From: Bilabrum cf. latius
Lineage: Eukaryota
Reading direction: 5' to 3'
Assembly: GCA_965178125.1 (NCBI GenBank)
Contig: OZ237768.1
Coordinates: 248,001 to 312,000, forward strand
Length of the DNA stretch: 64,000 nt
The notes under the pieces were generated by a model, which saw only the letters and a program-made list of their open reading frames with translations, made no database searches and was not told the DNA's origin. Every line of letters begins with the position of its first letter. Positions within the stretch are counted from its first letter, which is position 1. The position numbers and the translations under genes were made by a program. This document shows positions 2,140-64,000 of the stretch, one piece after another.

Positions 2140-3765
2140 TCACCCCCTGACGAAGTGGCAAAGGATCCCCGACCTCTCGGCGAGCCGGAACTTGGTCGGC
2201 TCAAGCCTCCCCACAACGGGGTCCTTGCTCCTGTCCCCCAGCACGTGCCTGACCCCCTCTTCCGTCCACAGAGGCAGCAGCGCATTTGTGTCTCCAATCA
2301 CACCCTTGCCCTCGCCCTTCAGCTCCTGCATCTTGGCCCTCAACGCCTCTGAGCTGGAGGCAGGGAGGGCCGTGGAGGGTACGAAGGGCGCATCCTTCGG
2401 GAAAATATTGTACCCTGTGTCACCCGGGGGGATTCCTCTCCCGAAATAGTGCTCGCTCCACCTCCTCTCAGTATCTCTCCCGCAGTTGAGAACAAACACG
2501 TGCGAGCCGGCAGGAGAAGCCGCGAAGGAGGCGGTGGCGATGCTCTGCATCCTGCCGTGATCCGAATCTGCGTACGCTGGCGGGCCTCGCACCATGACTA
2601 TATCGTATCCCGGGTAATCTCCGCCGCTGCCAGCGGAGAAACCACCGTTGCCGGGCTGCTCCAAGTCCTTGGCCCTCTGCAGAATACTCTGGATCTTGAG
2701 CTTCTGGTCGCCCATCCTCCCGTTCAACTTGTCCCTTTTGAGCTGTGTCCAATAGCTCACGGTCACGGGGCGGCACACGGCAGGCGTCTCGGGCGACAGG
2801 GGCGCGTCCGCGGGACTGCAGCCAAACTTCCTGAGGGTGTCTCCCTCGTCACAGGGAGCCTGCGACCTGCACGCCACGTCGATGATGCCACCTCGGTTGG
2901 CGCGAGCGACCACGCCCAGCTCCGCAGTGGCCCCAAAGTACAGAATCCTGAGGGGTTTGCCCTGTCTCTGCGGCGGGGCCTCCAAGCCCAGGGCCTCCAG
3001 CCGAGAGGGGGCGGACAGGGCCCTTGCCAGCTCCTCATCGGAGACGCCTGCCCGCCGCAGCCTGAGGGCCTGTATGGTGCGCAGCAACACCGCGAGCGCA
3101 GAGTAGTCCGCGATGGTCGTCTTGTCTCTATATGCGAGAGTTAGGTCTGCCAGGGCCTGAGTGTCCCAAGGCGACGGGTCCACGGCGCCGGAGACCGAGG
3201 CCGATTCGCTCGTGCTCTCGCTCCGAGGTGGCGTGATAGGATTCTATGGTGCTTGCTACTACTGTTTAGCTTCATATTCCTGTGCTTTGGGGGCCTTACT
3301 CTTCTTCTTCTTAGTCTTAAGCTTCTTTTCGCCGTTGGTCCGCTGCGTTGCCCCAGGTTTCCTACCTATGCCACCTCGCGCGCTTTCACTAGATCGAGCC
3401 ACGATCCGATCTGCAGGCGCCAGATCATGAAAATATTCTACAGGTACACTCGGGCTATCGAGTTCGATCCCCCTGAGCGAAGTTCCAGCGGTCGCAGGGA
3501 CAGGCTTTGGCGCAGACCGAACAGGATCGATATCGCGCGCATCCTGGAGCGTTTCCTGGTTGTGATCGCCACTTTGAAGTCCCCCGTCGGTTCTAGCATC
3601 GTTTTCCTGAGAATGGAACTCAGTCTGCGGTTTCTGCGACATCAGCACGAACTCGAGCGGTCCAATCACAAGGATGACTACAGCACTCGCTATCAACAGG
3701 GTAGTCTGCAGCCAACTTGTTGATCTCTGCTTGCCATACTTCCTATCATCGTCGTCTTTTTTCAT
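2140..3765 (-). CDS. Type II membrane protein with C-terminal DUF579 / IRX15-GXM-like polysaccharide O-methyltransferase-like domain (~541 aa)
   Basis: Track ORFs 3259..4158 and 2140..3183 share a frame and are separated only by TAGs (3259, 3256, 3244). There is an N-terminal TM segment (TTLLIASAVVILVIGPLEFVLM). Motifs LRILYFG, YDIVMVRGPPAY..GRMQSI and HVFVLNCGRDTERRWSEHYF resemble DUF579. Stop is TGA at 2142-2140. The start is uncertain: the frame is open upstream, with an alternative ATG at 4071. Confidence 0.7.
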
Positions 3766-4229
3766 GCCGCTGATGTGATATGGAAGGGCACCATGTTCAG
3801 TGGCGGTTGTAACTATCAATACAAGCACACAAACGGACGCGAAACTCAACCTGTCATGCGGCTTTGAACATGGAGTCCTTATTTGACGCTGTGTAGACGA
3901 TATGTGGGGCGGGATCGGAGGCGTGCACTTTGAGAGGGCGAACCTGCCGGCATGAATTGAGAGCAGCTCGGGTGTCTCACGGCACCGGTAGCCATCGGCT
4001 GGACTAGATCGCAGTGGCAGTGGCATTATAGCAGCCGGTTGATACTCTTTCCCATATATGCTAGTAGGCATTGAACGAGCATCGAGGTATGGTCCTAAAT
4101 TGGTCTTTGAGCCCGCCTCAGGCAAGTGAGGTTGCACAGCAGCTCGCTGATTCCTCACTTAAGCATTTATAGAACCGATCGTAGTGGTTAGGAAAAGAGT
4201 AGTGGATAAATAATGCTTCTGTAGGCTTA

Positions 4230-7200
4230 ATGTCGCTGATTATTGGGGATTCAAGCTAGGGGCGCTAGTGGGCGGCAAGCTTCTGCGCAGCAACTGGGCT
4301 CACCGTCAGCAGCACAAGGGAGCAGCGCGTGACCGCAGCAGGAGTGGGAAGTCTTCCGAAATGGATCGAACAGCTCGCGTTGCAGAGCACCCCTGAAGCG
4401 CTGAGATCTGCTTGCTCACTCGCTCTCTCGTTTGCATCGATCTGCCAGCTCCTGGTGGTGGCAGCTGCTGGAAGTGAAACAGTTCGAGCCGCATTTGCTC
4501 CCGAGGAGAGGCGACCGATGGATGAAACAAGACGGACCGACAGAGAAGAGAGCATGCGCGTGGAGCTGTTCTCCGTGCCTATCAGCCGACGCAAGGCCCC
4601 GTCTCTATCGGACTCAGGGGCACAGCCACCGCCGGCACCGGTACCGGCAGCAGCAGGTGCAAGTGGAAGTGCAAGTGCGGGGACTTGCCGCGATTTGCTA
4701 CACCGCAGGGCCGCCGATGCGTGCCGCTGCCTCGCAGCTCGGAAGGCGAGGACCTTGGTTGGCCTGCAGGCAGACCGCGTGGCTGCACTCGTGGCCAATG
4801 CAGACGAGCTGGGCAGGGACTCCAGCGAGGTACAGGCTAGGGCAAGGGCGGCCTTGGGCGCCACAGCCTTTGGTATCGGAGGCAGTGTTCTAAATGATGC
4901 CGACAGCAATGGTGCGCGAGTTCGTGCCGACGGCTCCGCTGTCTGCGGCGAAGGCAATCAGGAGCATGGCTGCGCGGCTGCGTGGTGGGAGTGCGTGCTG
5001 GCAGGCGCCGCTTGCCACGGATAGCTCTATGCAGATGAACTAGTGGACGAAGATGAAGGTCAATGTGACGGTGAATATGAAGGCCAATTTGAGCGCTCGT
5101 GTACTACTGGCGCAAGCAAGCTGGGCCAGGCCTCCATGGCAGACAACCCTTCAACGGTGGAGGCTGGCTCTGGCTCTCTTGACGACTCAATACGCGGGGA
5201 TGGGATTGCCAACAGTCTGTCCGTTCGCGCCAATGTCTGCCAGGCTGCCACCATTATTTGCTTGGACGTTCTGGCGAATGCGCTGGTGAGTTCAGCCCGC
5301 CGAGGGTAGCCCCCGTCGTCTGGTCAGGAGAGGCAGTCGCAGCACGATGGCTCGATGCTAGCAGCGGAGCAAAAAATGGCCGGCGGCTTGTCGTCCTCTT
5401 CGTCGTCCTCCAGCTCAATCGATGAAATTGAGGCTCGTGCGGTTGCACTAAGGCGGCTGAAGCTGAAGCAGCAGCGTAGGAAGCTGGCAGGGCTGATTGG
5501 CGCATCTAGTGGGTAGGATGGATCGGTCAGATCGTCCCCAGCACCTGCAGCATCAGCAGTGGCTGCAGGTGCACCTCGATCTACTTCAGGGGGCGAGGCA
5601 GGCGCCCTCGTCCAAGAAAAGTCGGAAAGCTTGGCGAACCATGCCCCCCCTTCTCTCTCTGACCAAGGGGAGGGTCGAGCTGATTCCAGCATAGCCTCAC
5701 CGATTGGGACGCTCCAAGCCGCAGCACCTGGTGCGGCCAAAGTATAGCAGTAGAAATGCACAAGCCCGATCACCGACTCAGATCCGCGCACTTCCGTGCA
5801 GTATGGCCTAGATTCAATGGAGACCTCTTTGCAGGAATCAATAGCCGAGACTCAGAGTGCCGCCATCCGTGGCATGCTCGGATGTACTGAAGCACGGACC
5901 GTCGTGGCAAAGCCCATCTCTCTGCTGGCATGGTTGGCGGTTCATCTAGCGGGGGCTCATCAACCAAACACGGAAGACGGTGATTCCTCGCATGCACAGG
6001 CAAGCGCTGATCTGGCTAGTATCGCAGATTCCTCAGGGCTTGGGCTTGGGCTTGGGCTGGGCCCCGCAGTCAGCCCAGAGTGCGTTCGTCAAGCGGAGAG
6101 CAGACTTTCCGGCGCTGGTCAATCACCACGCCGATCAACGAGGCGGGCAATGGGTCACTTGTCTATGGCTCAGACTCGTCTCGAGAGACTCGGTCAATGT
6201 GTTGCGTCATCCTTCCTTTTGCTGGCTTCTTGCTGTGATGGCCACGGTCAGCACAATGGCCATGATCCAGGCGCTGGCATGTCAGCTCCAAGTGCCGCCG
6301 TCGACCACAGGGGGCTTGATGATCACTCTCGCGCCCATCTCTCCAAGGATCGTTCGAGCATCCTCACTTAGATCTCTAGATTTGCCTCGTTTTCGCGCGC
6401 CTACTCTGACTGGATGCGGCATACCAGAGAGTGCGGGGTGCTGGCAAAGCAGCGCACCAAGACGGTGGTCAGAGCCGAGCTTCACGCGAGAGAGATAGCT
6501 GAGAAAGCCAGGCAAAAAGCCATGAAACAGGCTGTGGACCAGGCAGAGTTTGACCTCAAGCACGGCAGTGGCAAGGGGGTCGTGTCTACCTCCGAACAAG
6601 GCAGCGGCACCACTGTCGCGCCGTGGCGAGACCTCAGAGATCAGGCTGCGTCCGTTGGATAGAAGAAGCAGGAGTTCTCAGCGCAAGTTGCGACAGAAGT
6701 GGCGCTGGAACTGGCAGTCGCAGAGGTTTTTCGATTCTCTTCTGCGTGCCTGCTGAAGGCCTGCCTGCGGTGGTCCAAGGGTGCGGTGCAGGCAGAGCCG
6801 CGGCCTCGCGGGGGTCTCTCAAGCAGCGGCGTGCACGCCGGGAAACGAGGTACAAGCACCATCGAAATGATATAGGGGGCATCGGGCGAAGATATTCTTG
6901 GAGATGCATTGAATTGCGCTGCTATGGCTCCTGCAGCGGAGTTTGTCCCCCCTGCAATGAGCCTGGTGCGCCTCGCGACAACAGCAATCGCCGCAAGTCG
7001 AAGGGACCTGCACGCCGCATGTGCCCGCTGCTTGGGGCTGCTAGCGAGACAGGTGCATGGCACTGCAGTTGCTCGACTCACCGAGGGATGGTACGACCGC
7101 GGTTTCCCTGGACTGGAGCTATCCAAGGCATCGTCTGCTGGGGAGGAAGAGTCCCTCGCACCGTCCAACCACTCAGCGATGGAGGCAGGGTGCACGCGAC

Positions 7201-9770
7201 CGCTAGCCGAATCGGTCCCAACAGCCTCGGTGCACGTGCTCAGGCGACCCAGACCCTGTGTAGATGTCGCGATTCATTGCATAGGAGTGATGGGTTCTCC
7301 TTTTCGCGAGGACGCGGCAGCCGCAGTCGTCAATAGGGTGTTGCTTGCCTGCACCGGCTCCGCTTTCATGGGCCACGATGGCCGCATAACCCGGTTGTTC
7401 TAGATTGCAACAGGCGAGCATGCAGTTGCAACCGGCAGTGCGAAGGACAGCAGATCTGGCGCCAGCACGGCAAGCGTGCTGTCCTTCGCAGCCGACGGTG
7501 ATGCCCACATCTAGAGCCCAGGGCATTCCCTAGAAGCCTTGTCTGCTCTCATTTGTGGTCTCATCAGAACGTCTGGGTCGAGCGTATGCCATGCACCCGA
7601 AGTGCATTCAGAGAGCCAGGGCTCTAAGAAGAACGCATCAGGGGATTAGGAACTAGACACGGTCAGTCTCGCCATGGGACTGCAGTGCGGCCTAGACGCA
7701 TCGATGGCAGACTCCATCGGTGGACTGGCAACTGGCCTGTGGCGACTCCCGCCCGCTGGGTCATCAACCGCGGTGCTTAGCCCGCCTCGTGCCGTGGCCC
7801 TGTCCCCGCCTCGTAGCGGAGCAGCAGTTCTCATGGGATCAGCGAATGGGCGGTCCCAGTCCCACCAGAGCCAGAGGGACCCACGGGGCCGCGATGTGTC
7901 GGTTCGAAGCGCGTTGGTGCTGGCTTCGCTGTCATGCGCGGTATTGGAAGCCACTGTGGTAGTCGTCTCTCCCGGGTGTGTTGGGCTGCGATCCGATCCA
8001 GAGGGGCTGGAAGCAGGCTCACGTGCAGGCGGGGCCTCCGTTCAACCGCCCATGAAGCGAAGGAGACTTGGCGCCCCGTCAAATGCCGAGCTAGACCAAC
8101 AAGCGGGAAGAGCTGGCCGCGGCCGCGGTCGGGGCAGAGGTAGGGGTAGGGGAAGGGGCAGAGGCCGTGGCAAGGGCCAAGTGCGCTCTAGCGCCTCAAC
8201 TCCCACGCCATCAGCATTGAACGGCTCTACTCGCGTGGTATCTGCCGAATCCATCTCTGAGCTGGCCACGCCCACCCAGCTGCTCCAGCTTGGTCTCGGG
8301 CCGATCACGGTGTATCAGCTGCTGGACCTGGGTTCATAGGCTTGCCAGATGATGAAGAATGTTCTAGAATAGACGGCTGGCAGAAGCCGCGGCTCACCGA
8401 GTACCGTGGACCAGGAACCAGCTGCAGCTGCAAGCCGCCGTGCCCCTACCACAGCTGGTCTGGATGGAAGCGCGATCCGTATTTGTTCTCACCTCGTGAG
8501 GTGGGCGCTGTGGCAGGCGCAATCGTGGCTGCAGCCCATGGAGTCGTCTCTGGCCGTGCCGTGGCGCCGCGGCCTGGACGAAGGTTCTCTGAGAACCCTT
8601 CGCAGGCGTGCCGCTCGTTGCAAAGAATCGGCAAAGCAGCTGCACCAGGCGCTGTGCGAATACACCGGTGTTCGGGCGAGGATGTCGCTGCCGGAGGTAT
8701 GCATGCTTCAGAGAGTGCTGCGTCTCCTCGAAACTGACGTGGGCAAGTGGCTGCAGGCATCGCCAGAAGTCGACATGTATGGCGCGATGGTAGGCGCTGG
8801 CAGTGGAGGGCGCCATGGTAGCTTCAACTCTGACTCCCGGAATGAACGGCTGGGCGATGCCGGCTCCCGGGTAGTTGGCCGGCAGCTGGCGATGGCACGA
8901 GTGGCGCAGGCCATGGTAGATGAAGGATCAGAATCGATACCATCGCAGTCGGGAGGCGACGATGACACTGACCAAGCGGATGAGGATGATGAGGATGGTC
9001 ACGAGGATGAATGCTATCGTGGCGGGGGTGGGAGCGAGGACGATGGATCCATGTCTGAATCTGGGTCAGACTCAGGCTCAGATGGTATGGCCGCTGGATC
9101 TGTGAGAAATGAGGCTGGTATCGGCTCTGCCCTGAATGAACGCGGCATAGTGATGCATAACGGCAGCGATTCGTAGATCCGGATGACCGGTGCAAAAGGA
9201 GCTGGTGACTCTGGATCGCAGCATCACGGCCTGCTTGCCGCTTCGCTTGGCGGGCACAATCCAGGACCCACCCTATTTGGCAGCGAGCATGGCCACAGCC
9301 AGAGTGCATCCCCCGGTGCCCCCACCATGGGGGTGCCGGGGCTAGGCATGCAGCCTCAGCCTCAGCCTCAGCCTTAGCCTCAGCACCAGCACCAGCACAG
9401 CTGGTAGGGAGCCGGGTATGCCGGGCTGATGCATGGGCTCGTCCCCATGCCATCGATTCCCGCTGCGTCACCCGCGCCGGATAGTGCTGGAGGGATGCGC
9501 CTCGGGCAGGCTGTGATGGTGGCACAGCACGTGCACAGTCACGTGCACAGCCACTATCATGCAGGGAGCAGCTCCAGCTCGATAGGACCTGACTACCCGC
9601 GCCACGTTGGGGATGCAGCCCCCGGGAGCTTTGGCCGAGAGAGCATTGCGATGGGTGCTGGAGCAACTGGCAGTGCTGCGGGTGCCGCCCAGCAAGTTGT
9701 CGATATGGACGGGTTGCTGGCAGCTGCAGAGGCCCAGGGGTTGTTGTCTAGTGACAGTGATAGCGACTGA
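4230..9770 (+). CDS. Large (1846 aa) intronless low-complexity protein with RG dipeptide tract, acidic tract and QP/QH repeats; function unknown
   Basis: Track ORFs starting at 4329, 5043, 5559, 5796, 6414, 6909, 7674, 8406, 9183 and 9429 are all in one frame. Every intervening stop is TAG. ATG at 4230, TGA at 9768-9770. Confidence 0.8.
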
Positions 9771-9880
9771 GCAATCCATTTAGAAGGCTGCAATCACTAT
9801 CCTTCACTTTGTCTTGGATCTGCAAGTGCAGCGCACTGTCCTGATGTCATGTTCAGTCGCAATCACTTGGCTCCCAAATA

Positions 9881-10828
9881 ATGAATCGATTTGCATCCAA
9901 TCTGCTGAGAAAATCCGTGCGATACTTTTCTGCGGCTCCGCGGGCCGGGCCAGCACACGCTCTGGCAAATAGTTGCATCCTCGTCACTGGAGCTGGGAGC
10001 GGGATCGGCCGGGCAATTGTTGATCTAGCTTACAACTCTGGAGCACGCGTTGTTGCAACAGATCGCGACAAAGGATTACTCACTAAACTTAGCCGAGATT
10101 TAGAACCATCGACACCGGGAGAAAGTCAGCTGACCACAATATCGGGAGATGTTGCGAGTTCGCAGGATCGCTAGGCGATGATTGACGAAGCCTTGCAATT
10201 CGGGAATAGGCTGGATGGGCTGGTCAATTGTGCCGGAGTAGACTTTGGAAAGCCTTTCTTAGATACTAGCATGGAGGACTTCGACCGGGTAATCGACGTC
10301 GATCTAAGGGCAGTATTCGCCCTCACTCAGCTTGCAGCCAAAGTCATGGTAAAGTAGAGACCTAGGGAGCACCCAATTAATGACTCCCTGGTCATAAAGC
10401 AGCTCCCTTCCATCAAAGGTTCTATCGTGAACATATCATCTGTGCACTCGGTCGCTACCCTCCCAGGCGTGGCGCCCTACGCCGCTGCCAAAGCCGGTGT
10501 CGTCGGTATGACGAGGTCTATTGCGAACGAGCTGGCTCCCCTGGGCGTGCGGGTCAACACAGTGTCGCCCGGCCTCGTAGCGACAAAGATATGGGACGAC
10601 GTGCGCGCCGCGGCTCCCTCCAGGCTGGCAGCCCAGGAGCACTGGGCTCGGAACATACCACAAGGTGCGCCCAACACACCCCTCGAGATCGCGCAGGCGG
10701 TTTGCTTCCTCCTGTCACCCATGGCCTCTGCGTTTCAGGGAGCGAACATTGTTGTGGATGGTGGCATGACGTCTTAGCTCGTATCGCAGCCGCCTTACAA
10801 GCCGAAGCCACACGGCGCTGGGTCGTGA
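9881..10828 (+). CDS. Classical short-chain dehydrogenase/reductase (FabG-like), probable mitochondrial presequence (315 aa)
   Basis: Motifs TGAGSGIG, LVNCAG, SIVNISS, YAAAK, RVNTVSPG and VVDGG lie in one frame interrupted only by TAG at 10172, 10355 and 10775. Stop is TGA at 10826-10828. The N-terminus is Arg-rich (MNRFASNLLRKSVRYFS). Confidence 0.93.
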
Positions 10829-11007
10829 TCCCGCGGTGCTTACCGGACTTGCTGGATGTACAGCATAAGGGGATGCTTGTTGGGGTGCGATGAAACCTGG
10901 ATGAAATTGAAGACGGTATCCATGATACGCTAGAAATACTCATCAACATGCCAATATATGTTTCCAGCCCAACGTTGTCTGAATGCAGCTGTGCATCCGC
11001 AGAGTGC

Positions 11008-14000
11008 TCAGCAAACCGTTCAACAGGACCCCTCGCCTTCTTTGCGTCCCTCTGCTTCTAAATGTACACAGCCGCCATCAGTTGCAGCCGCAGCAGCCTC
11101 ATTACCATCGTCGCAATCGTTCGTTTCTGCTGCCGCCTCTCTGCCCTAGGCAGAACCTGCGCCATTTGAGGCGCACCTGCTCACCGCAGGACCTGACCTG
11201 CTCCTGAATATATCAGGAGCAGCATACGCTCTCGCGTAGGAAGTACGCGCGGAGAAATGACGCGCCGACGAGCGCCTTCGAGGCGCAAGGTTTCCAGACG
11301 TGCTCGAGGGTCTCTCCCCCTTCCTCTAGTAGATCTAGTCGTTATCTATGCCACCCTCATCACCGAACTGTGCCATCAATCCAGCACGCCGTCTCTGGTC
11401 CCTGCTGCGGCTTGCACTATGCTTATGGCTCCCGCTGTCGGACCTACCCCGCTCCCGCGCTGCCGCTGACCGCCACCCCAAAGGAACCGACATGTTATGC
11501 TTGACCCCTGCCCGTAGACGCCTTTCCATACGCTTGTCCGGCCATGCCTGCACGGCCCGGCGGGGGCCGATCCCCACAGCGGGCCCACCTACCGTCCCGG
11601 CAAACACTCCGCTGCCCCTCTGCCGACCATCACCCCCAGCATCGCGCTTGTGCCGGGGCATGAAACCGGATACCCTCCTCGGTATTGTGCTCCCAGCTCC
11701 GCCCGTGGCCGCCATCTCTGCCCTTGCCTATGAGTCGAACAGCCTCCCACTACTGTGCTTGCCACCAGCCGACAAATTGGGGGCGCTGGGGGCGGTGGGG
11801 GCGGTGGCGCTCTGCCTCGCTAGCTCCCGCCTGTGCCTCTTGCTGGCAAATGAGGGATTGCGCCACCCTACGCCGCCGAGTGCTCGAGCCCTGTCCTGCT
11901 GCTTTGCAATCGCCGCGGCAGTAACGCGCGCCACAGCAGGCTGCACCTGCGACCGGTGGTGTCTGTGAGACAGGTGCAACCTATGGAAACTCCCGGATGG
12001 ATCAGCGGGTCGAGTCTCAACCTCTATCTATCGGTGGCTGCGAGGCTCCAGGGAACACGCTCCTGGGTGCACGATGCAAGACTCCACCAATCCCACTGCA
12101 TTAACAATGCCTCGGCGACCGCCACTGGTTCTCAAACGGCCACGCGCCCTGAAAACAGAGCCAGCTTGCAACTGCACCCGAAGTAGGGCAAGCGACACCC
12201 TGAGCTCTGTGAGCACGACAGTGCGCTGCAGTCGGAGATCGTGACCGACTGGCTCGATCACAGGATGCACTCCTGCGGCCTGCGTACCCAAAGCTTCTTT
12301 ACCCCGAAACAGGCGCGTGTGCCAGGGCACAGTGTCGCTGGACTGGTCCTGCAAGGCAGCTGAAATCGTCCCAAGCGGTGCCACGAGCAGCCCATCCCCC
12401 GGCAGCAGCTTGTACGTGCTATAGCATGCACCAACTACATCTCCTAGCACTGCGTCCGCTCCTGCTCCAGACACAGGCGCTTGGCTAGCCTCAGGTACAA
12501 CCCTACTGTTGAGCCGCACTTTCCTCTCGTCCTTCGCAAAAATCATCCCGGGAATCGAGCGCCATGCTGGCCCGCCCAGAGCAGTATCTGCCATGGACAA
12601 TGAGCTTGAATGATCGTGCAGATCATCGTCACGCCGCATTCTGGTGCCTCTGTCTCGCGTCTCCAAGAGGAGGTCGGTTTCCCAGGCAGCCGCTTGTGTC
12701 GCCCACCGCCAGGTGCATGCGCCCACAGAGGCCGCCAATGCTGCATGCTCTGCCTCCTTCGTGCGAGCATCGCTGACACTGCTTGGTAGCTCAATTCTTC
12801 TAGCCTGATTGCCTGGTGCTGATTGCTCGCACAAGGCTTTTCTAGTTGCCCATTCTGCCGCGTGCAGCCTGGGCCCACACATGCTACTTGCGCTTCCGCC
12901 AGATAATGGGTCGCTGCTATCGGACGATACAGACGACATCGCGCCTGTCCAGGACCGCGTTGGCATCGCGCATACCCAGTGGGTGCATCCAATTGCGTGC
13001 CTGTTCCAGGCAGCGCGCGATCCAGCCCAGCCACACTCAGGTGCAGGGCATTGCCGTGGCGCCAGAAGACAGACCTAGTCATGGTCTCCCTGGAGCTCTG
13101 CAAAGATTGCTCCTTGGGACGTTTGGTCTGCATGCTTCCCTCCGAGCTCTCCATCTATCTTCAGTGACAGCCAGGCACCACAGCCGTGCCTGCATGCTGT
13201 GCCTGTACTTGCTTCAGGGGGTTTGACACCACTGGCTCTGTCGGGCAAGCCTGTACTCGTGCCACTCTCCTTCACTGCCGGCGAACAAACTCCTGCATGA
13301 GTGCCCATCACGTCGCTAGCTGACGTTTGTACACCCGTAGGCATGTCCTCAGGTGGCCTAAATCTGCCTATGATCCCAACAGATCGCAGTGATTGTTCCA
13401 GCGACTGCCCGGCTTCGTGGCTGCCACCAGACATCGCGGCACTCGTCACACCCCTGAGGTCAACCGCACGCAGCTGCCCTGCGCTGCCACCAAGAAGCAC
13501 ATCCACGACGCCCCGCAGTACCGCAATAGACCCGAATGGCGCCGCTAGGACTCTGAGTCGAGGACACGACTCGAGAAGCTCCCCAGCCCACTCGGATCCG
13601 CAGGACCTCCACCCTGCACTGGAGAGCGAGGGGCTCTTTCGGGCATGTCTGCGCATCGATCTATTGCTTCCTTCGTCCATTAAGGGGCCCGTGGATAGCC
13701 ATGGCACCGACAATCCGACCAGCTGCTTGCACGCTGCCAGAGCAACCGACAGGGACACCTGATCTGCTCTGCAGCAGGACCTCGGTAAGGCCAGCGTCTG
13801 CAGGCCAGCGCCAACGCTACAAACACAGGTATCAGAATGATGAAGACCGCAAGTGGTCTAAATTTGGGCTGAGCTTTGAGCCACAGAAGCGCTGTGACGG
13901 CTTTCCACTCCAGCTATGTCACCGCCATGTGACGGCGTGGTCTGCACCTGCAGCTGCAGCAGAGTGGCAAGTCCGTCTGTCCCCAGTGAACCCTCCGACA

Positions 14001-15561: not shown

Positions 15562-15805
15562 GGTCTTCAATTTGATTGCAACCACATCTCTCAGCGCTTT
15601 TGGCCGGAGTCCTATTGGGGACGTGTAGACTACAAAATTGGCTGTCGAATATTCTGGGCGTGGATGATGAGCATGGTGTGCAACTGCAGCTCATCATCTC
15701 CGGGGCCATTTTGACGCAACAACTGGACCGAGACAAGACAATTCTTCAGGTATTATTTTTCCTGGAACTCATACGGGCATCTTGACCTCTGCGATACCAC
15801 TTGCA

Positions 15806-19256: not shown

Positions 19257-19301
<45 letters not shown>

Positions 19302-52100: not shown

Positions 52101-55100
52101 GCATCGCACTGGGCGAAATTGCCACATCGCACCGCAAAGGGATCACTGCACCTTGAGCCCCTGACACGATCTGTGCGGTAGACTCACTGCTGGCAATGCT
52201 GACGTGCACCGCTGGGATTGCGTCCACAAGTACCAAGTCTTCACAAGCGAGATCGGCACCAATGAAAAACTAAGCCCAAATAGATCTGCTGTGTATGGCA
52301 AGTGGGATGTCGCATAGGTACCGAGGGCCGTTCCACGTTCCATGGCACTCCAGTCCGTTCATCAATGCGAGCACATCAGGAACCTGATCATTCAACAACA
52401 CTTCGAACTCGAAGGCAACACTGCTATTTGACCGAGTCAATGGCTCAATCTGCTTGCATACGGGTCTATCCAATACGTGAAGAGTATCAACAGCGGTATT
52501 GCGACCTAGTACGGTGACCCAGAGTTCATATGTACCAGGTGGCACGCGTTCGAAGTTGACAGAATCTCCGAAGATCCTGGCGGCAACTGCCTCAGCCTTG
52601 CCATTCAGGTACAGCTACGCCGCCTCCAACTACCATTCGCTATCGTCTTCGCTAACTCTGTCGTCGGAAACCTAGACCCAAAAACTCGGGGAGTGCACCA
52701 CATGTGTTGACAGCGACAGACCCAACAGTTGGAGCGTGGACCCATCGCCATATTTGCTCGCCTTAGCTGATGCTGATTCCTTGCTGCGACCTAATGGAAT
52801 GCTGACAGAAACACCACTCTATCCAAACAGCCGTATCGAAGATGCTGACTCGTGGGCTAGGTCAGCCTGAAATGGGCAAACTAGCGTCTTTTCGGAGAGT
52901 TGAGCCAGCTGCCACTGGCTCTGCCCCACCATGCACCTCCATGGCCCCGCCCCCGCTACATCATCAGTGCGATCATCGAATACAATGATGGCATCGGATG
53001 CTTCTTGACCTGCTGCAGCTAGAGACTGTACGACGTAAGCGTTCTGCAGGATTGCACCAGGAATGTCAACGAGCAGAGTCACAGAAGCATTCAAATTTCC
53101 GGTTCTGTCTGGGCTACATTCCAGTTGTATCGCCATGGATCCTTGTAGCAACAACTAGCCAAAGTCACAAACGAAAATTTCGGGTGATAGAATCTCCGCT
53201 GCCACTTGCATCATCTCTGCGATGCACGCGCACCGGAACAGGCTAGTTGAGGAAGACAGCAGCACCGCAACTCCACGAGGATCAGGGCCGTCCCACAGTA
53301 TGCGGCTGCCAAGAATATCAATCGGAGCACTCGAATTGGAGCTATTGAAGTCTATCTCCTAACCACCCTCGTGCACTATTGTCTCATCTGCCTAAAGAGA
53401 CCATGCATTGCTGGACTAGGCAGAGCCTGTGTGCCCCGCCTTGGAGATACGAAGCCAGGCACTGTCAAACTCCTCGCCATGCAGCGAAAATGAGGCCTTA
53501 ACAACAGAGATACCGTCTTTTCTGTCTATCGCCCCGGCCACAAGCATAGCGCATGCAAGTGGATCGATCGAACAAGTCAAAGTGCTAATATTATGGAATG
53601 CGCAGCGCATTCCCAACCCCGCTACGTGTGCTGTAAGGTCTTGCTATGCCTAGGGGTCAGCACCGGCACTGCCGCCCAAATGAACATGTACTGCTGGGAA
53701 CGAATCTTGATGCTCACTGCAATTCAAATCGAGTGTCGTTGGCTGCACATGTCGAATGTGTGGCACATCGATGACACGAGACTGGGTGAGCTTTACCGGC
53801 GCAGTTATTGCTACACCACCACTGTGCGCCGCAACTGTAACGTTTGCGCTATAGATGGGCTCGCTTGAATTCCGTGAAACTGGGAACCGACACAAGAGAG
53901 AATCAGTGCTTCCAGCCATGGCAGGCCTGTTTTGGCCCGACTCATCCGTGCACACCAGCCTGAACCCAGCCTCTGCAAGTCTTCGGAGTGTCGTCTCGTT
54001 GCTCTCTCTTCCAAAAGACACAGTTTCATGGTGCTTGCTACGAGAATATGAAGCAGAGAGTTCCGTATGAGCAGCTATCCGCAGTATCTGCACAGCACCT
54101 GCTACCACTCCATCAAAAAGCAAGGTAGCCGCGCTAAGCTCCGTCGACACGGTGCCCTGGGTACATGAGCAATGAATGGAGCCCTCCCGCAAGCGGTCGC
54201 AATCGCACTCGACTTCTTGGGAGATGTTCACGCGAACCCGCACCCCATATCGCACGGCTTGCTCGATACAACGGGCTGTAGGGGATAATATGAAAGCATC
54301 ATGAGAGTCAGTCCGAGTACGAAGACCAGTAATAGGAGCCTGGAAAGGCAGCTGGAAAGCGAACACATCAGCCGAGGAAAACACGCTGGAGAGGCCTGGC
54401 CTGCCTCGTGCAGTCACCCCGCATTCGCCATGGGAGAGGCTCCACTCGGCAACGCGAGCGAGAGTATTCCTCTGCTGGCCGGTCAGCATCGACATGGCCC
54501 ACTAGCGATTATAGTCCAATCGGTTAGACGAGGTGACCGTCGAATTCTTCAGCAGCAAGTATCGGGGGAGGCTCTAGTCAAAGTGGATGAGTCGTACAGC
54601 TGCCGAATGGTGCAACACCGGTACCGTCGCATCGATGACTTCGACCGAGCCAGCTTGGTCCAAGTGAAATCGCTGGATAGCCCGGCAAGATGTAGTATTC
54701 GCCGGGAATTGCGTGCACACCCACCTTGCACTATCGGCCATTCTCGGCCTAGCAGCTGCTTGTGGCAACACATGCAGTGCCGCTGGCGTGCTCTGGATCA
54801 CAGCGGCAGAGGCAGGATCCATAGCAAGATCAATCTGCACATAGCAGCTCTCTCCAACACAGCCCCCCTCGGTTCCACCAATAACTCCGCTGGAGTATAC
54901 CGGAACTAAAATCGGAGCCGAGACTCGGCTGGCAAGCTCGCCAGTCGTGCGCCCGCCAAGCTCAACAGAAACCTCAGCTGTGAGTGGGAACGGGCCTTCG
55001 CTGTGCATGGATTGCACAACAAGCTAAACCATGCATATGAGTCGATTGTGCATGACCTCCAGCACGGGTGGAGCAGATCCAGTCAGTGACGACTGGCAAC

Positions 55101-57102
55101 GAATGGCGTCATCCCTGGCTGCTGCCTCGATCGCGCGCTCTGCCCGGGTAGAAGACACGATCCACTCTGCCGTGAGGCTGCCCACTCCATCCTTGATAAA
55201 GGTTGGATTCGCTGTTTCGTTGAGAGGAATTGGACGAGCCATTGCATTGAGCGAGCTTGCCGGAATGACCGCGTGCTGCATCGCAGATTCCAGCCGCTCA
55301 AGAACATCGACCCTCGAGCCAACGTCTCTCCGGTCACACTGCACAACTATGCTCGCCATTAGCATCGGTTCGGTGATGACCACCTCAGACACACATGTCA
55401 CAGATCGATTTGAATCTCGGCCCACCCCGCATCCAGACACAGCCGCGACCGGCGAGTAGTCATCTGCAGGCCACGACACGAGGCACAGGTTCTGTCGCGA
55501 CTGGGCTGATGGGCCTGTAGATGCAGTCATATCCACCTGCCATCTTCCCATTCGCGATGTCACTAGCGTAGATCGTACCGCATACAGGGGAACAATTTGT
55601 GGCAAGACCCTAACAGCTGCAACAGACCCGTTGGGACTCGCGCCTTGGCCAGTGCGATCGGCCAGAGACAGGGCAGCCGCAGCGCAATCAACAACGTGCA
55701 CATCAAACGAAGCCACTGTACGCAATTGTCTAGCGGTTATGGGTGGTAAACTGCACGAAGCGTGCTCTGTTGCGTTCTCTACTCGAAGCCTAGTTGCTCC
55801 ACGTGACAGGTGCTCTGGCGTGGATCCGTTCGATTGGACGAACAGGCAGCACAAACCACCACCTGATTCTAGAGGTCCGCTAATTGCATGACCAAGGACC
55901 TCAGTCGATAATGAGATTTGGCCGTACGCCCCCCGCTCTGTAGCAATGAATGTGAACGTGCTCGGGTCAGCGAGCGCGGGTATGTCGCAGGCACCGCGCA
56001 GCTCCAGCTCAGCCTGGCTTCCCGCCTGATCAATGAGCTCCAGCCGTTCTCCTGCTAGCGAAGCCCGGGCAGACAAGTGACAAGTTATCCTCCTGTAAGT
56101 GGAATCCACAAAGGGCTTTGTAGAATGAATGACCTTTCCTGCTCGATCCAGAACGAAGCAGCCAAGTTCATTCGCAGCAGGAATAGATAGTGTCTCTTCA
56201 GCAGTGACCACGATACTTCCTGGCAATCCAGCGGTGCATACGCTTCTATCCCGGTCGAGCTAAATCCCACCAATTGGGTTGTACAGAGACACGTGCAGCG
56301 CCGAGGTCCGGGTCCCATCGGGGGCTTGGACCCACAGGGTAGCCGACGTGCCGTTGCAGCTGCGGGCTAGGATTTCGCACTCCCCTGCTCCCTCGGACAG
56401 CAAGCGTACAGGAACCTGTACACGATCTGTGCTGGACGAGCACCTATCCTACTAGAACACGCAATACAACTCGAGCGGACCCTAGCTTCGAGAAAGCCGC
56501 TGCGGCAGGCCACGAAGCCTCACGGTGCCAACCGCATTTCGCGGCAGGAAGAGGCTGCCGGCCGCATCAACAGTCGATTGTAGGGAGGCGGAGGACTGGG
56601 TGCCAATGCCAGTGGTTCGTAGCACTACTTCCTTGTACCCAGGGTTGAATACGGCCAGGTTCAATCTCTTTGGCGCTCGATCGCCATCGTGTCCCCAATT
56701 CTGCTAGGCCCGCGCCTTTCGCAGAGCACGCTGCACATCCCTGGTAGAACCAGTTTTCCGAAGAAGCTGGTTCCCCGGCAATTGTATGTGACCACTATCA
56801 GATAGTGATAAACCTGCGCTGGACTGTGAGCTAGCTTCGCTGCCCTCAAATCGAGGTCCAGTCGATAGCACTGCCTCAACTGCCTCCAAATAGTCCACAT
56901 CAGAAATCGTCAACCGCCCCAGGTCAAACCTGCGTTAATAAAGTAAATTCCACTAGCAGCGTAGCGTATGATGCAGTATTGGATGATGCGAGGGAAGGGA
57001 GCACGGCATGTTGCTCGCTCCTCACTGCGTTGGGCCGGAAGCGTGAGCCAGCATAATCATAGCACTAGCCAGCACGCACGCTGACATATCACTGTACTTC
57101 AT
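22147..57102 (-). CDS. Giant (~11,619 aa) cell-surface protein: signal peptide, long Ig-like/IPT-TIG array, Cys-rich GCC2/GCC3-like repeats, multipass TM domain, CxxC/CxxC motif, C-terminal coiled coil
   Basis: Exon 1 at 57102-57026 encodes MKYSDMSACVLASAMIMLAHASGPT. A GTGAG...GCAG intron spans 57025-56930. Exon 2 runs 56929-22147. More than 50 minus-strand track ORFs share one frame (low coordinate = 1 mod 3) and all end at TAG except the last, which ends at TGA 22149-22147. The gaps I scanned by hand contained only TAG. Confidence 0.9.
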
Positions 57103-57173
57103 GGTACAAGTAAGCCTCGGTTAGATGACTACCTAAGCTATACTTGTCGTTATATGAGCCACAACATGCAAAG

Positions 57174-57193
57174 CGTTGCGATAGCAACGTTGC
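57174..57193. promoter_or_regulatory. Palindromic X-box-like element in the 173-bp divergent intergenic region
   Basis: GTTGCGATAGCAAC at 57175-57188 (CGTTGC-N4-GCAACG) overlaps the perfect palindrome GCAACGTTGC at 57184-57193. It sits midway between the ATGs at 57102 (-) and 57276 (+). Confidence 0.4.
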
Positions 57194-57275
57194 GTGCACA
57201 TTCGGCATACAAATTGCGATTTACCGAATTGCGACCAAACCACGCCACAGCAGCAGGAAAAGACAAGATTGACGG

Positions 57276-58818
57276 ATGTCTTCCTTTATTGAATCTGAAA
57301 CAGAACGAGTTGTAACTGTTTTAGATCTATGCGTCGCCCAGCTCCGGGATATTGCAATCGTTCCGTTGACAAAGCAGCTCCCGAAGTTCATAGTATCGGG
57401 TGCAGCGCCAACGGACAGCGGATCGACCGGAGACCAGGATGATTCGCCTCATTACTCCCCGCTGGAAACCGCCCTGCTTAAACAGGCCGAGTCCGAAATA
57501 ACGTTTGCCAAGAGCTTTGGCTAGGGGAAAGGCGGGCTGGCCCTGCCAGAATTGTTCGCAACCACTCGGAGGCTGTCTCGCGACATAGCAGCTGCGAGAC
57601 AGCTGAGAGAGGTAGGTGAAATTGGATCACAATCTGTAGATGGCAAGGTTCTTTCCATGATTGAGCGAAGCTCCGACCGCCGACGAGCGCGGGGTGCCGG
57701 TGCATCGACTGCGGCAGGTTCTGGCATGGTGCCCCCTGGCACAGCCCGTTCAACTGCGACTCATGGTACATCACGCCCATTTACGGCTGCTAGCACTACT
57801 TCAAAGGGGACTGGTGTGACTGGTGGTGGTGGTGGCGGTTTGCTTCCATTGGAAGGCTTGGCTGAAGCACTATCGCAGCTCCGAGTGAGATCGCAAAATG
57901 ATGATTCCGTCGAGACCACGCTACTGCAAGACTTGCGAAGAAGCTGCGTGCAAATTGTGACAGTAAATCGCCTTACATACCTTTGGTTTGTCTCTAAGAA
58001 GACCAGCTGCGCATTTATGAGACTGCCGCCCATTGTGGAACTCAACTCTTCCTATTCAATCGCAGGACGCGATGCATGCCCGGTTCATGACATCGGTGGA
58101 GCAGAAAGCGCTCCTCGAAGATTTCGAGCGGGGGCTGGACGACAAAATAAGGCAGGCAGAGGCGCACGAGCAGCTGCTCGTGGAGGAGCTCCGGAGGCAG
58201 CGTCAGAAGCGCGAGGCAGACCGCACCAAGCAGGACGACGAGGAAGCGAGGTTTAGGGCAGAGTACGACGACGCTGACACGAGGTCTAGGCAGGCCGCAC
58301 AGGCGCTTGCTTCGAGCGAGGCCGAGCAGCACCGCTCGCTGCGATCGTCACACGAGTCTCACTCGGAAGCGATCGACAGGGACCTGCAGCAGACCGAGCA
58401 AGCAGTTGCTCAGAAGCAGGCCGGCAATCTCGCCGCGGCGGAGGGCCTTCGAAAGAAACGCTTCCAGGAGACAGTGCGTATCACTGAGATTCTGGGCGAG
58501 TACGATGCTCGCATGGCCGAGATGCAGGCCGAGGACGACTTGCTCGCTGCCGAGAACCGCAGGATAGAGAGACAGATTGCGGCGCTGAGGCAGCACTTCG
58601 ATGTCGAGGACGCGAACGAAGGGGAGACCAAGCATGAGGACGGAACGGTTGGGGCTGCCATCCGACAGGAGTTCGACGATCGCGAGAGACAGGAGCTGAA
58701 TGCCTCCCTGGTGATCGCCGAGTGGGCGAGGAGGAGGCTGGACCAAAAAGCGGCCGAGCTAGCTGCCAAGAAGGGCAAGCGCAAGGGGAAGAAGGGCAAG
58801 AAGAAGAAGAAAAAGTGA
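57276..58818 (+). CDS. DRC10: Dynein regulatory complex subunit DRC10/IQCD-like coiled-coil protein (~479 aa)
   Basis: N-terminus ETERVVTVLDLCVAQL; coiled coil LRKKRFQETVRITEILGEYDARMAEMQ; degenerate IQ-like segment; Lys-rich tail KKGKRKGKKGKKKKKK. TAG at 57522 is read through. A phase-0 intron at ~57963-58065 (alternative donor 57948) joins the frames. Stop is TGA at 58816-58818. The related DRC9/IQCG is not excluded. Confidence 0.7.
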
Positions 58819-59537: not shown

Positions 59538-61865
59538 TCACTTTCTCTTCGGCTTGTGCGATTTTCGCCCCGCCTTCGACTTGGACGAGCTCTTGCCGCT
59601 GCCCAGCTTGAGCATTGCCTGCCAGTTGCCACTCCCGAGCGCCACGGCAGCTTTTCGATGCCCCTGCTTCCGTGACTTCTTTCCTTTTTTGCTCTTCATA
59701 TCCTAACTGGACCCGTCAGAAGCTCCGGCGCTTCCTTGATCCGACTCTCGCCTGCTCCGTTTCCCGCCCGGCGCACCCTCGGCGGGACCAGGGGCACCCC
59801 GCTTGCCCCCAATCGTGCCGCCTGCAGACTCCTCTTTCTGTGAATCCTCCCTTTCCTTTGCTCGCTCTAGGGCAGCCCAATGCCTCTCGAGCGCCTTCCG
59901 CTCTTTCTTCTGCTTGATCGTCTCGTGCCGGGGAGCGAAGGCCCGCTCGATGGCTGCCTGCAGCGTGCCGCCGGGAGCACCCGCCACACTACCCGCGGCA
60001 CCTGTGCCACCCAGATTCCATTTATCCCGGGCGAGTGCGTTCTGCAGGAAGAACACGGAGGTATCACACGTCGACACCCTGTACCTCTGCCTCCTCCACT
60101 GTTGCGACCCCTCAGTGTACCCGTGCTGGGACTGCTTGAGCACGATGCTCTGCCTGAGGAACTTGGAGGCTTGGAGCGCCCCCCACCCGGGAGAATCGTC
60201 CCACCGCGGGATGATGATGCAGAAGCCCAGGGGCACCCTTGCCCCCCGGAGGCACCCCTCCATCTTCTCGGACATGGCCCGCATCACGCCCTCCACGAAC
60301 GGCGGGTTGGCCTCCAGCGACAGCCCCCTTCCCGGGGGCAGCCGCTCCAAATCCAGGTCAAAGAAACTGCCAAGGGAACCGAACCACACGTCCGTGTCGG
60401 GAAAGGCAGAGCAGAACGGCGCCCACCTGCAGTTGAGTGGGCTGGCGAAGCATTCAACGCACGCCCCTGCCCTGCTCCTGAGCACGTCAAACACTTCGCC
60501 GTGCGCCGCTGCTTGAAAGCCACCACCGCCGCCGGAGAGCGCCTCGTATCGTGCGAGCATAGCAAACAGTCTGGGCAGGAACAGCTCTGGCTGCGATGCG
60601 CCTGGACCTCTTGAGTACAGCACCCTGAGTTTCTGGTAGTGGGTCGGGTTGAGCCTCAGCTTGAGCACCGACTTGCCGGCCTTGCCACGCGAGACAAGCA
60701 GCTACGGCGGGCGGAGAGCTCGCTCTTTCTTGCCATCTTCGCCCTTACCTTCACCCTTGCCCTTGCCCTTGGTCCCGCCTAGTTCCCCTGCCGCAGAGCT
60801 GCTTCGAGACCTACCCCCCGCGCTGCCATCCTTCGTTGTTCCCTGCGCCTTTACCGCCGCATCCCATTGCTTCCACACAGCCGGGGGCACCTCTGGACCT
60901 GCGAGGCCATCCGAGCCAGCGAAAGAGTGGCTGGAGAGTGTGGTGCCTCCTGCTTTGGGGGAGCACCGGAGCACTTGCTCGGGCTCGTGCTCGCTCTCTT
61001 CAATCATCACACGGATACCGGCTTTGCTGGCGGCACGCGAAAGTACCGAGCCGTCGACGTGTGCAGCTGGGCCACCTGTTCGCCCAGCGCGTGCAGATGC
61101 GGATGATGAGGCAGAAGAAGAAGAAGAGGAGGTGATGGAGAGGCTGCTCCCCGCCGGCATGCTTGCGTTGGCCGCCGCGATCTCCCACGCATTCGCTTCT
61201 TCTGCTACTGATGGTGACGTTCCGGGCGAGGACGAAGCAGGCGCGGGAAACGGACGCTTGATTAACCCCACAGAGGAAGCATCGGCAGCCAGTGAGACGC
61301 CGTAGTCAGCAGCGCTCGCACACGTGGCTGCGGGGGCACCGGCCGACCTGCGAGATTCGCTGTACCACGCTCGAAGCGATGGACCGGCAGACCCTGGCGC
61401 GACTACTTCGGTGGGCAGTGCTGGCGGTGTGCGCCCGACGGAGCGAGCGGCTTGCTGCGTAGCTCGTGCGAGTGCCTGGGCCGCTGCTTCGGCCTTTTCA
61501 GCCGGCATACCTGCCTTCTTTGCGGCTTCCACTAATTTATCAAACGACGATATTCTCAGCGGAATCAGCGGATCTATCGGCTCCACAGCCTTTGCGACGC
61601 TCTCGATGCCGTCGGCTAGCTCGCTCTACTTGAGCAGCTACTCGAACTGCCACTGTTCAAACGCTGCAACTGGGACATCAAATCCCTTGCATAGACCATC
61701 GAAAAACTTGTGCCTCAGTGAGCGAAGTGCTAGGCACCTCCTGGACTCGACTGCAGGATCCACAACCAACGGCAACTGCTTGCCGACTGGATTTGTAGGC
61801 AAGACAGGCGCAATATCAAGGACATGTTTGGGGCCAGCGGCTTGTTCGTCCCAAATTGGTTCCAT
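59538..61865 (-). CDS. PCIF1: mRNA cap-adjacent (m6Am) adenine-N6 methyltransferase PCIF1/CAPAM (~775 aa)
   Basis: Motifs LARYEAL..GFQAA, ECFASPLNC, FCSAFPDTD.WFGSLGSFF and catalytic EANPPF; upstream helical-domain-like AFEQWQFE and DPLIP. Track ORFs 61638, 60702 and 59703 share a frame joined by TAGs. A Lys-rich tail ends at TGA 59540-59538. Confidence 0.9.
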
Positions 61866-62040
61866 TTGATCAGCTCCGCAAACAAATCTATGGAAATGAA
61901 ATGGTTTGAGGCAAAAAAGGCCCGTCATGGAGAACTCGGTTTCACGAACGTTCCATGCGATCTGCCGAGTGTACCACTCAGTGTCCACGTGCGGCTTTGG
62001 CAGCGCGCGAGGTGCTGTCTCCGTAACGAGCATGCATTAT

Positions 62041-64000
62041 TCACGGTCGGCACCCGTTCGTGTTGCCTTCCTCCACGACCTCCCAGTCCTGCGCATCCTT
62101 GGAGGAGAAATCGGTCAGCGACTGCCCCTGCGCCCCCTCCGAGCACATGGTGTTGCCGAGCAGCTTGTTGTGGACGGGGGTGCAGTACTTGTCGTCCAGC
62201 ACTCCGGAGAGGAAGGGGAATGATTCTCTCCACGCGGGCTTGCTCGCTTGCTCTGCGAGGGTCTGGTTGTCCTCCCCGTGGCAGCTCGACTTCTGCCAGC
62301 CGAGCCCTCGGTCATCAATGTGAATCGCGACCGCCTTGGTGCGATTGAGGGCGAAATAGTTGCCTTTCACTGTGGTATTGCGGCCACCGCCGATGAACAC
62401 GCCCTTGTTGCAATCGATAAACGTGTTGTTTTCGATCGTCCACCAAGACATCTCGCTGCGAAAGGGGGATAGGCGGGGGGGAGGAGAGGGGGGGTTGGAA
62501 TAGATGGGGAGAGGGGGGGGGCTAGTCGGGGGTCAATGACAGGGTCGGGGGTCTTCGACATCATACCATACCAGCAACCAGGATGAAAGCAAGGCAAAAT
62601 GTACATTGAGTGGAGTTCAACCTTGCGCCATTCGCACTACGACAAAATTGTACCGATCCATGACAAACAAAGGATGCAACCCCCCGTTGTCTCACTCGTC
62701 CAGGTAGATGGCCTGCACCGACGGATAGCCGAGGGCCACCGGCTCCGTGTTGTAGATCCTGCGGAACGTGTTACCTACAAGGCTCGAGTTGGGGTTAATG
62801 AACGCCTCGCCCTTCTATCCACAGGTGTAGAACGCGCCTGAGTCCGACACTTCCCAGCTTACTGCGAGGGTAGGAAGGCAAGCTAAAGGCACGGGATCTA
62901 GGAGAGGTTGTCCGTCGAGCAGCACTGGGCAAGCAGTTCGATGGTGCAGTAGTCAGCAACAGCACAACAACAGGCAGATTAACACACTTTGTAGGACCGA
63001 TGCCCGCCGTCCAATGAAGCTGCTCTCATGACCGAATGAAACAGCTGTCTCTCACGGTCTTCGATCAGGTTGCCCCGTACCACTGCGCTCACCCCAGGGA
63101 TTTCGTTCCCACCTCCCAGGATGCCCTGATGCGGCCCGTTGAACACATGGTTGTTCTCCAAAGTGACACCTACCCCGCCCCAGTGGATCCCAGGCATGTA
63201 GGTCCGCTTCCATCGGCCCATTTGGTGCGCGCTCGTGTTACGCACCACGATGCCAGACGGCGTCAGCGTGTCGAAGTCGGCTGCGGGCCCGGACACCGCC
63301 ACTGCGCTGCAGCCGACCCCGTACGCTTCCGATGAGTCCACGACGGTGCCCCGAGACCCCTCGATGGAGATTCCTTTGCGACCGTGCAGGGAGGCCACCA
63401 CGTTCTTCACACCGATGTTGGTGCAGTTGCCTTCCGTGCAGTTGACGCCGGATCCCATGGAGGACTCGAGCACGAGGCCATCGAACTGCACGTTGCTGGT
63501 GCCGGGACCCAGCTCAAACACATTCGCAGATACGCCAAAATATGCGCCATCGTTCATCGTGCGGCCGCTCACGCCCCGACGCCCGGCGAGCTTGGGAGCA
63601 GCTGCTCGCTGCTCCTCCGAGTTGCCGTCGAACCGCTCCAAATCGGACTGGGAGGGAGGGTAGAAGTACAGCGTGAGATCCGGGTCGGCTGTGTCGACGT
63701 ACCATTCCCCTGGGGCGTCGAGCTCCGACAGGAGGTTGATCCCGATGAAGCGAGCATTCTTTTTCCAGGCGGCCGGCCTCGTGCTGCTCGAGATGTTGAC
63801 GAGCGCTCCGCCGCTAGGAAGCGGCGAGATCGCGGAAATCTGCTCGTACTCGTCCGCCCAATCTACATGAACGTAGCCGTGGATCCAGGGGTCGTTTTCT
63901 TTTGCCCAGTTCAACGGACGGCTGTCGGTCGTGTTGAACCACGCAGACGTGCCGCCATCAGCGTGCGAGAACATCCAGGAGCCGTTCGCGGCAATGTTGG
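62041..64000 (-). CDS. Right-handed parallel beta-helix carbohydrate-active enzyme (GH141-like), 5'-partial
   Basis: Exons >64000-63056, 62861-62696 and 62455-62041 with GTGAG...GCAG introns. Motifs LLSELDAPGEWYVD, LYFYPP, RWKRTYMPGI, NGPHQGI, DSGAFYTCG*, AIYLDDEMS (spans an intron) and FIGGGRN. TAG at 62817-62815; stop is TGA at 62043-62041. Confidence 0.85.

Follow-up and report, generated by a model that had tools for sequence, protein, structure and literature searches.

In the 64-kb window analysed here, a stretch of contig OZ237768.1 from the assembly GCA_965178125.1 of Bilabrum cf. latius, TAG is a frequent sense codon, TAA is almost completely kept out of the reading frames, and TGA stands at all ten gene ends that lie within the window. 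The code follows the pattern of NCBI table 15, an already known kind in which TAG alone is reassigned to glutamine (Gln), and not that of the ciliate table 6. In the reading that we prefer, at a probability of roughly 0.6, UAG encodes Gln, UGA is the preferred terminator and UAA is a little-used stop; the single in-frame TAA of the window, in an arylsulfatase gene, would then mark a null allele.

With the standard or bacterial set of stop codons (table 11), the open reading frames (ORFs) of the window do not exceed 722 amino acids (aa); when both TAG and TAA are taken as sense, a single frame of 11,620 codons emerges (22147..57009, minus strand) together with several of 800-2,000 codons, all of them closed by TGA. 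The window has a GC content of 53-61% (58% overall) and carries eukaryotic genes by Pfam, among them a PCIF1-type cap methyltransferase, a short-chain dehydrogenase (SDR), an arylsulfatase, and a giant protein with IPT/TIG and ephrin-receptor-like regions. Eleven gene models with 19,314 in-frame codons were built from spliced RNA contigs, homology and splice motifs, and ten of them have their 3' end inside the window. In-frame counts were 181 for TAG, 1 for TAA and 10 for TGA, every TGA being terminal; TAG occurs at least once in ten of the eleven models, including the Pfam-supported SDR, PCIF1, sulfatase and TIG genes.

The exclusion of TAA from the frame is far beyond chance, since the other two frames of the same genes (counted in an earlier set of ten gene models) contain 85 and 75 TAA; the in-frame rate of 1/19,314 is thus about 85-fold lower than the out-of-frame rate of 160/36,366. 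Codons ending in A are freely used (CAA 236 vs. CAG 569, GAA 333, TCA 282), and the ratio of CAA to CAG predicts about 75 in-frame TAA for a code that treats TAA like TAG; as only one was observed, table 6 is rejected. An earlier inspection of the letters alone, here called the sequence-only reading, had proposed that TAA is not a common sense codon and that UAA is decoupled from UAG, and had named in-frame TAA in proportion to A-ending codon usage as the mark of a plain table 6 code; the gene models agree with the proposal and lack the table 6 signature. TAA is ordinary in non-coding DNA, with 81 occurrences over 4.8 kb of intronic and intergenic sequence and with GTAAG at the start of two of the three sulfatase introns, and its scarcity in frame therefore reflects selection rather than mutation bias. 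The remaining in-frame TAAs of the ORFs called with table 6 fall within the first 10-44 codons (5' leaders) or, at 62981 and 62861, within the first intron of a beta-helix gene.

The amino acid specified by TAG is most likely Gln, judging from homologous proteins, and confidence in this assignment is high but not complete. In the SDR, the TAG at residue 299 corresponds to Gln in 12 of 13 homologs (Met in the remaining one) and the TAG at residue 159 to Gln in 10 of 13, while the third TAG site is variable; an SDR relative of 82% identity (P0003) has Gln at residues 159 and 299. A fragment 90% identical to the giant gene product (P0231) has Gln opposite both window TAGs that it covers, and relatives of 82-92% identity taken together show Gln at four of five window TAG sites and Phe at one. 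All three relative fragments of 90-92% identity that had been called with the standard code end exactly at a CAG of the window; the fragments would end there because the relative would have TAG at this position, as expected if TAG encodes Gln. Most TAGs of the giant gene occupy variable alignment columns, and the most conserved TAG columns have Gln as their top residue (40/134, 31/107 and 16/45). Over 25 TAG columns, Gln was the most enriched residue (2.15x), and the column profile correlated best with that of Gln columns (r 0.735). No enrichment of CAA or CAG beside TAG was found (0.051 against a background of 0.042), with just two short mixed Gln runs. A metagenome scan with the SDR for the contig of the 82%-identical relative returned 72 loci whose best segments were only 26-43% identical, and these were taken as unrelated SDR genes.

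The gene ends and the individual codons on which the interpretation turns are distributed as follows; coordinates count from the first letter of the window.

1..1746, minus strand (G1): protein without assigned function, 3' end beyond the window; 582 codons with 5 TAG and 0 TAA.
2140..3762, minus strand (G2): type-II membrane protein whose C-terminal region weakly resembles IRX15/GXM, modelled from an ORF; TGA end 2140-2142.
3873..9770, plus strand (G3): low-complexity protein (1,965 aa; 26 TAG in frame), covered by an RNA contig from 3858; TGA end 9768-9770.
9881..10828, plus strand (G4): short-chain dehydrogenase with 3 in-frame TAG (Pfam adh_short_C2, 7e-57); TGA end 10826-10828.
11020..15561, minus strand (G5): protein of about 1,513 aa without assigned function, with 9 TAG, on a single RNA contig (10941-15620); TGA end 11020-11022.
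11008..11022, minus strand: tandem TGA pair, with the true end of G5 at 11020-11022 and a second in-frame TGA at 11008-11010, 12 nt (four codons) further on.
15806..17808, plus strand (G6): arylsulfatase with four exons and introns at 16060-16167, 16224-16311 and 16895-17027; TGA end 17806-17808.
16524..16526, plus strand: in-frame TAA (context GAC TAA ACC) inside the sulfatase domain, the sole in-frame TAA in the coding sequence of the window.
18050..19790, minus strand (G7): gene with introns at 19135-19380 and 19481-19622 and further exons upstream, modelled from X5/X6 contig joints and an open spliced frame; TGA end 18050-18052.
22147..57102, minus strand (G9): giant secreted protein of about 11,617 aa, IPT/TIG plus ephrin-receptor-like cysteine-rich; TGA end 22147-22149.
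56935..56937, minus strand: TAA in the giant table 6 ORF, in a predicted 5' intron whose acceptor AG follows 6 nt later.
57276..58818, plus strand (G10): coiled-coil protein with two exons and a predicted intron at about 57963-58065; TGA end 58816-58818.
59538..62033, minus strand (G11): PCIF1-like cap methyltransferase with 4 TAG (Pfam PCIF1_WW, 1.3e-51); TGA end 59538-59540.
62041..63998, minus strand (G12): right-handed beta-helix protein with at least three exons, 5' end beyond the window; TGA end 62041-62043.

The giant gene consists of a short signal-peptide exon (57026-57102), an intron of about 97 nt, and a single 34.8-kb exon (22147-56927); its 5' intron was predicted from the GTGAGG...CGCAG motif pair and the reading frame. 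The table 6 ORF (22147..57009, minus strand) contains 128 TAG and one in-frame TAA, and the coding sequence 127 TAG, 0 TAA and 164 CAA. The statement of the sequence-only reading that TAG and CAA are common in this gene and that in-frame TAA is absent from it holds for the coding sequence, as the only TAA of the ORF (56937) is probably intronic. A poly(T) loose end at 22043, 104 nt beyond the TGA of the giant gene, suggests a poly(A) site at this distance. The representative library contained 3,233 homologs, the best of them 47% identical over 1,200 aa; the best named homologs come from Cantina marsupialis and Pythium insidiosum.

All ten positions that had been put forward as gene-end TGAs are TGA on the strand given for them, and nine are true ORF ends, closing frames of 163 to 11,595 codons when only TGA and TAA are taken as stops; the tenth, 11008 on the minus strand, is not a gene end but the second member of the tandem pair. 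As a terminator, TGA is only weakly beyond chance at ten of ten ends: the probability of finding no TAA among ten ends is 0.155 if the TAA share equals that of the out-of-frame codons (0.17) and 0.095 with the share of the whole window (0.21). The next in-frame stop after the primary TGA is TAA in three of the ten genes. Ten gene ends fit both a plain table 15 code with a strong TGA preference and a vacant TAA; since the lack of TAA ends is only weakly unusual, a rare stop and an unassigned codon are not separable from this window, and with so small a sample TAA ends may occur elsewhere in the genome. At the end of the arylsulfatase gene, TAG CCT TGA (17797-17808) places a TAG two codons ahead of the terminal TGA, and in this gene alone termination may occur at that TAG. 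With the arylsulfatase set aside, no gene end needs TAG or TAA; the frames run to TGA, and the RNA contigs end 27-179 nt past it (G5, G6 and G7). A context-dependent code, in which the same codon is sense inside genes and a terminator at their ends, was not found.

The transcript evidence comes from contigs of four public runs, aligned to positions 2400-22399. Contigs of X1, a DNA run, align colinearly to the window; those of X5 and X6 show plus-strand GT..AG joints at 16059/16168, 16223/16312 and 16894/17028, and minus-strand CT..AC joints at 19134/19381 and 19480/19623. Because these joints are present in X5 and X6 and absent from X1, the X5 and X6 contigs represent spliced transcripts, and both runs were taken as RNA on this criterion; none of the runs is recorded as RNA, and X5 was automatically labelled 'probably DNA'.

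The in-frame TAA of the arylsulfatase gene had been overlooked in the sequence-only reading. Its alignment column, directly after an invariant Asp, holds Phe in 25 of 26 homologs and Leu in one; Phe also occupies this column in P0341, the closest exon-matched relative (71% identical). No letter other than TAA was found in the X1 DNA contig, in the X5 spliced RNA contig, or in any of the four runs, and the codon is thus present in the mRNA. Pfam Sulfatase and Sulfatase_C matches extend over three frames of the genomic DNA, and the spliced frame is open; the named homologs are from choanoflagellates and Picozoa. A 27-nt in-frame micro-intron that would remove the TAA was considered and rejected: it would delete the invariant Asp, the RNA contig is colinear across the site, and the other introns measure 88-246 nt. 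An alignment to human arylsulfatase B (1fsu), by which the residue at the TAA might be named, was too divergent around the site. The codon marks a nonsense allele or else is read through; it fits the first of these as well as the earlier idea that UAA is a codon in transition.

According to the preferred reading, the window would be nuclear DNA of a compact, GC-rich eukaryote with few introns. In cytoplasmic translation, UAG would be decoded as Gln by a predicted tRNA-Gln(CUA) that is unable to pair with UAA, and UAA would be selected out of reading frames, most simply since eRF1 still recognises it. The absence of TAA ends would result from a strong UGA preference in a GC-rich genome combined with a small sample, and the sulfatase TAA would be a recent premature stop, one step away from a codon for Tyr or Leu in the place of the family's Phe.

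Several observations weigh against this reading. No tRNA gene was found in the window by ARAGORN, and hence no tRNA-Gln(CUA) was seen. With distant homologs only, the summed log-odds over the 25 TAG columns place Ser (-2.9) a little above Gln (-5.6), an ambiguous result by which, if these homologs were considered alone, TAG might encode Ser; among closer relatives, P0177 has Phe opposite one window TAG, and P0264 (73% identical) has Arg opposite two. The arylsulfatase gene is otherwise intact, with a spliced frame of 558 codons, three correctly spliced introns and the invariant residues of the family retained, and its RNA contig depth of 15.6 resembles the 14.8 of its neighbour; to turn a Phe codon into TAA takes two substitutions, against one for a Tyr or Leu codon. 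The probability of no TAA among ten gene ends falls to 0.019 when the TAA share is taken from the 4.8 kb of introns and intergenic DNA (0.33). Finally, UAA accounts for 86.9-98.3% of stops in phyllopharyngean ciliates with a UAG-only reassignment, according to PMC11687900, and PMC5304391 calls UAA the 'primary' termination codon of Iotanema.

The alternative that survives best, tentative as it is, holds that UAA is effectively unassigned: eRF1 would be biased towards or specific for UGA, the only suppressor would be a tRNA-Gln(CUA), and UAA would be avoided within genes as well as at their ends. Rare in-frame UAA codons would then be passed by a near-cognate tRNA, most plausibly tRNA-Tyr(GUA). 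Consistent with this alternative, TAA is absent from ten of ten ends though it makes up 33% of TAA plus TGA in local non-coding DNA and three of the ten downstream stops, and the sole in-frame TAA lies in an expressed, spliced and otherwise intact gene, at a column where the closest relative and 25 of 26 homologs carry Phe. Among substitutes for Phe, Tyr would be the most conservative, and TAA is one step from TAC and TAT; in yeast, tRNA-Tyr(GUA) is described as the read-through-inducing near-cognate tRNA for UAA in a preprint (bioRxiv 10.1101/2023.06.19.543857). The argument is based, however, on one codon and ten gene ends, and composition alone yields a probability of up to 0.16 for the absence of TAA ends. 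A vacant codon would also be costly, being one transition from 181 in-frame TAG, and no nuclear code with a vacant UAA is described in the literature searched (most subscription journals and supplements were outside the search), nor is one known to us. UAA is, moreover, the least leaky stop in yeast according to that preprint (bioRxiv 10.1101/2023.06.19.543857). It is doubtful that the code would have UGA as its one stop, UAA as a vacant codon and the other 62 codons as sense. By analogy with ciliates in which both UAR codons encode Gln, such a vacant-UAA code might have arisen if eRF1 lost UAR recognition and only a tRNA-Gln with the CUA anticodon was gained, an origin that we regard as unlikely. 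If UAA were indeed vacant, it would be a frozen intermediate between stop and sense, and sporadic in-frame UAA would be passed by tRNA-Tyr.

It is quite improbable that UAA is a sense codon of very low usage, either for Gln (table 6 with an extreme TAG bias) or newly captured for Tyr, Phe or Leu. The in-frame TAA in a conserved and expressed sulfatase and TGA as the only terminator seen would fit such a code; yet TAA occurs once against 181 TAG despite a CAA:CAG ratio of 236:569 and the common use of other A-ending codons, a tRNA(UUA) would read UAG too, and Gln is implausible at a near-invariant Phe column. The roughly 85-fold in-frame deficit is the pattern of purifying selection against a stop-like codon. 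That nothing beyond table 15 is involved, the TGA-only ends and the sulfatase TAA being sampling noise and the TAA perhaps a strain-specific sequencing or assembly error, draws on the small sample (with the probability of no TAA end reaching 0.16) and is very improbable, as the TAA is identical in X1 DNA and X5 spliced RNA contigs, an agreement that excludes an assembly error while leaving room for a real nonsense allele.

The remaining features of the window concern gene structure and expression. Introns measure 88-246 nt, start with GTAAG or GTGAG and mostly end with CGCAG (16060-17027, 19135-19622, 56928-57025); they are concentrated in genes with a high GC content at third codon positions (GC3 of about 0.8: sulfatase, beta-helix and G10), and the long genes of low GC3 are nearly intron-free. 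The exon boundaries of the beta-helix gene were predicted from GTGAGA..CAG motifs and a GC3 of about 0.8; its earlier exons lie at 62.7-64.0 kb, and the TGA at 62041 (minus strand) closes the last exon. A codon-bias exon scan trained on the giant gene returned no segment above threshold, and codon bias is therefore too weak for exon finding. At gathering thresholds, no Rfam family matched in the window, and no eRF1 gene is present among its genes. For the type-II membrane protein, Pfam PF21729 scored E 4.5e-4, under its cut-off; an RNA contig piece covers 2400-3763, and the contig record runs 336 letters further before 2400.

The genome is very compact: the promoter region common to a divergent gene pair spans only about 100-170 bp (3763-3872, 15621-15722, 57103-57275), and convergent genes are separated by 190-720 bp. 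In the PCIF1-like frame, the first ATG follows the TGA of the beta-helix gene, its upstream neighbour on that strand, by 8 nt (62031-62043); either the two transcripts overlap, or the true PCIF1 start is further downstream.

G7 has ankyrin-like N-terminal repeats, as judged by eye. A six-frame Pfam search of 19100-22150 gave only a sub-threshold SIP1 match (E 0.0041), and this region was assigned to the upstream part of G7 (exons, introns and repeats). Within it, X1 DNA depth rises to 113-309 over 20400-21340, compared to about 22.6 elsewhere, with base differences clustered between runs; over this segment, which matches nothing in Pfam or Rfam, the RNA-like contigs of X5, X6 and X7 exceed the depth seen at neighbouring genes. 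These features suggest an expressed, multi-copy element within the upstream portion of the G7 transcript. A 39-nt tandem repeat at 19900-20000 is present in three copies, with a peptide-like unit repeated in translation, and its copy number differs in X5, where 78 nt are skipped at the joint 19913/19992; at 19249-19309, a 12-nt microsatellite coincides with a contig break point.

Few nuclear codes split UAG from UAA; PMC5304391 and PMC11687900 name Iotanema and Scotinosphaera along with a rhizarian and a small number of ciliates. A GC-rich lineage with UAG as Gln and UGA at its gene ends that is not evidently a ciliate would represent a further and probably independent origin; no GC-rich or stramenopile nuclear code with UAG as Gln was found in the literature searched, with the limits given above. 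The lineage would offer a natural case for asking whether a stop codon passes through a vacant state before reassignment, as the unassigned-codon model holds in contrast to the ambiguous-intermediate model (PMC11687900), and if UAA proves to be vacant, the code would be a new variant. Gene callers that use the standard code fragment genes of this kind, and the public proteins of relatives are fragments ending at positions where the window has CAG; annotation should use table 15 instead of tables 1 or 6.

Among known systems, the context-dependent codes of Condylostoma, Blastocrithidia and karyorelicts have stop-type codons inside genes in common with the window; here, in contrast, the frames run to TGA and the transcripts end soon after, with the TAG near the arylsulfatase end as a possible exception. 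Other nuclear codes in which UAG and UAA have parted include the rhizarian exLh (UAG as Leu), Scotinosphaera (UAG as Ser) and Oligohymenophorea sp. PL0344 (UAA as Lys, UAG as Glu), according to PMC5304391 and PMC11687900; UAG and UAA differ in meaning in all of these, whereas UAG is best read as Gln here. The table 6 codes of ciliates, dasycladaceans and hexamitids, in which both UAR codons encode Gln, share TAG as Gln and TGA as the only terminator observed, but in the window TAA is not Gln (1 against about 75 expected), and the sole TAA stands at a Phe column.

The closest likeness is with table 15 systems: UAG is reassigned and UAA kept as a stop in the fornicate Iotanema spirale (PMC5304391) and in the ciliates Hartmannula sinica, Trochilia petrani and Protocruzia tuzeti (PMC11687900). 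TAG is frequent at Gln positions, TAA is not Gln, and TGA is a stop in these systems as in the window, and the mechanism predicted in the same papers is a tRNA-Gln(CUA) unable to read UAA (PMC5304391, PMC11687900). In contrast to them, the window is GC-rich (53-61%), its genes are long and its introns (88-246 nt) of the ordinary GT..AG type. Its named homologs point in different directions (stramenopile, choanoflagellate and picozoan), and the lineage is thus not obviously that of a ciliate or a fornicate. UAA predominates as terminator in the table 15 systems, whereas none of the ten gene ends here is TAA and all ten are TGA. Stop usage is thus reversed, and would form a mirror image of that in the known codes with UAG alone as Gln; the code table itself need not differ.

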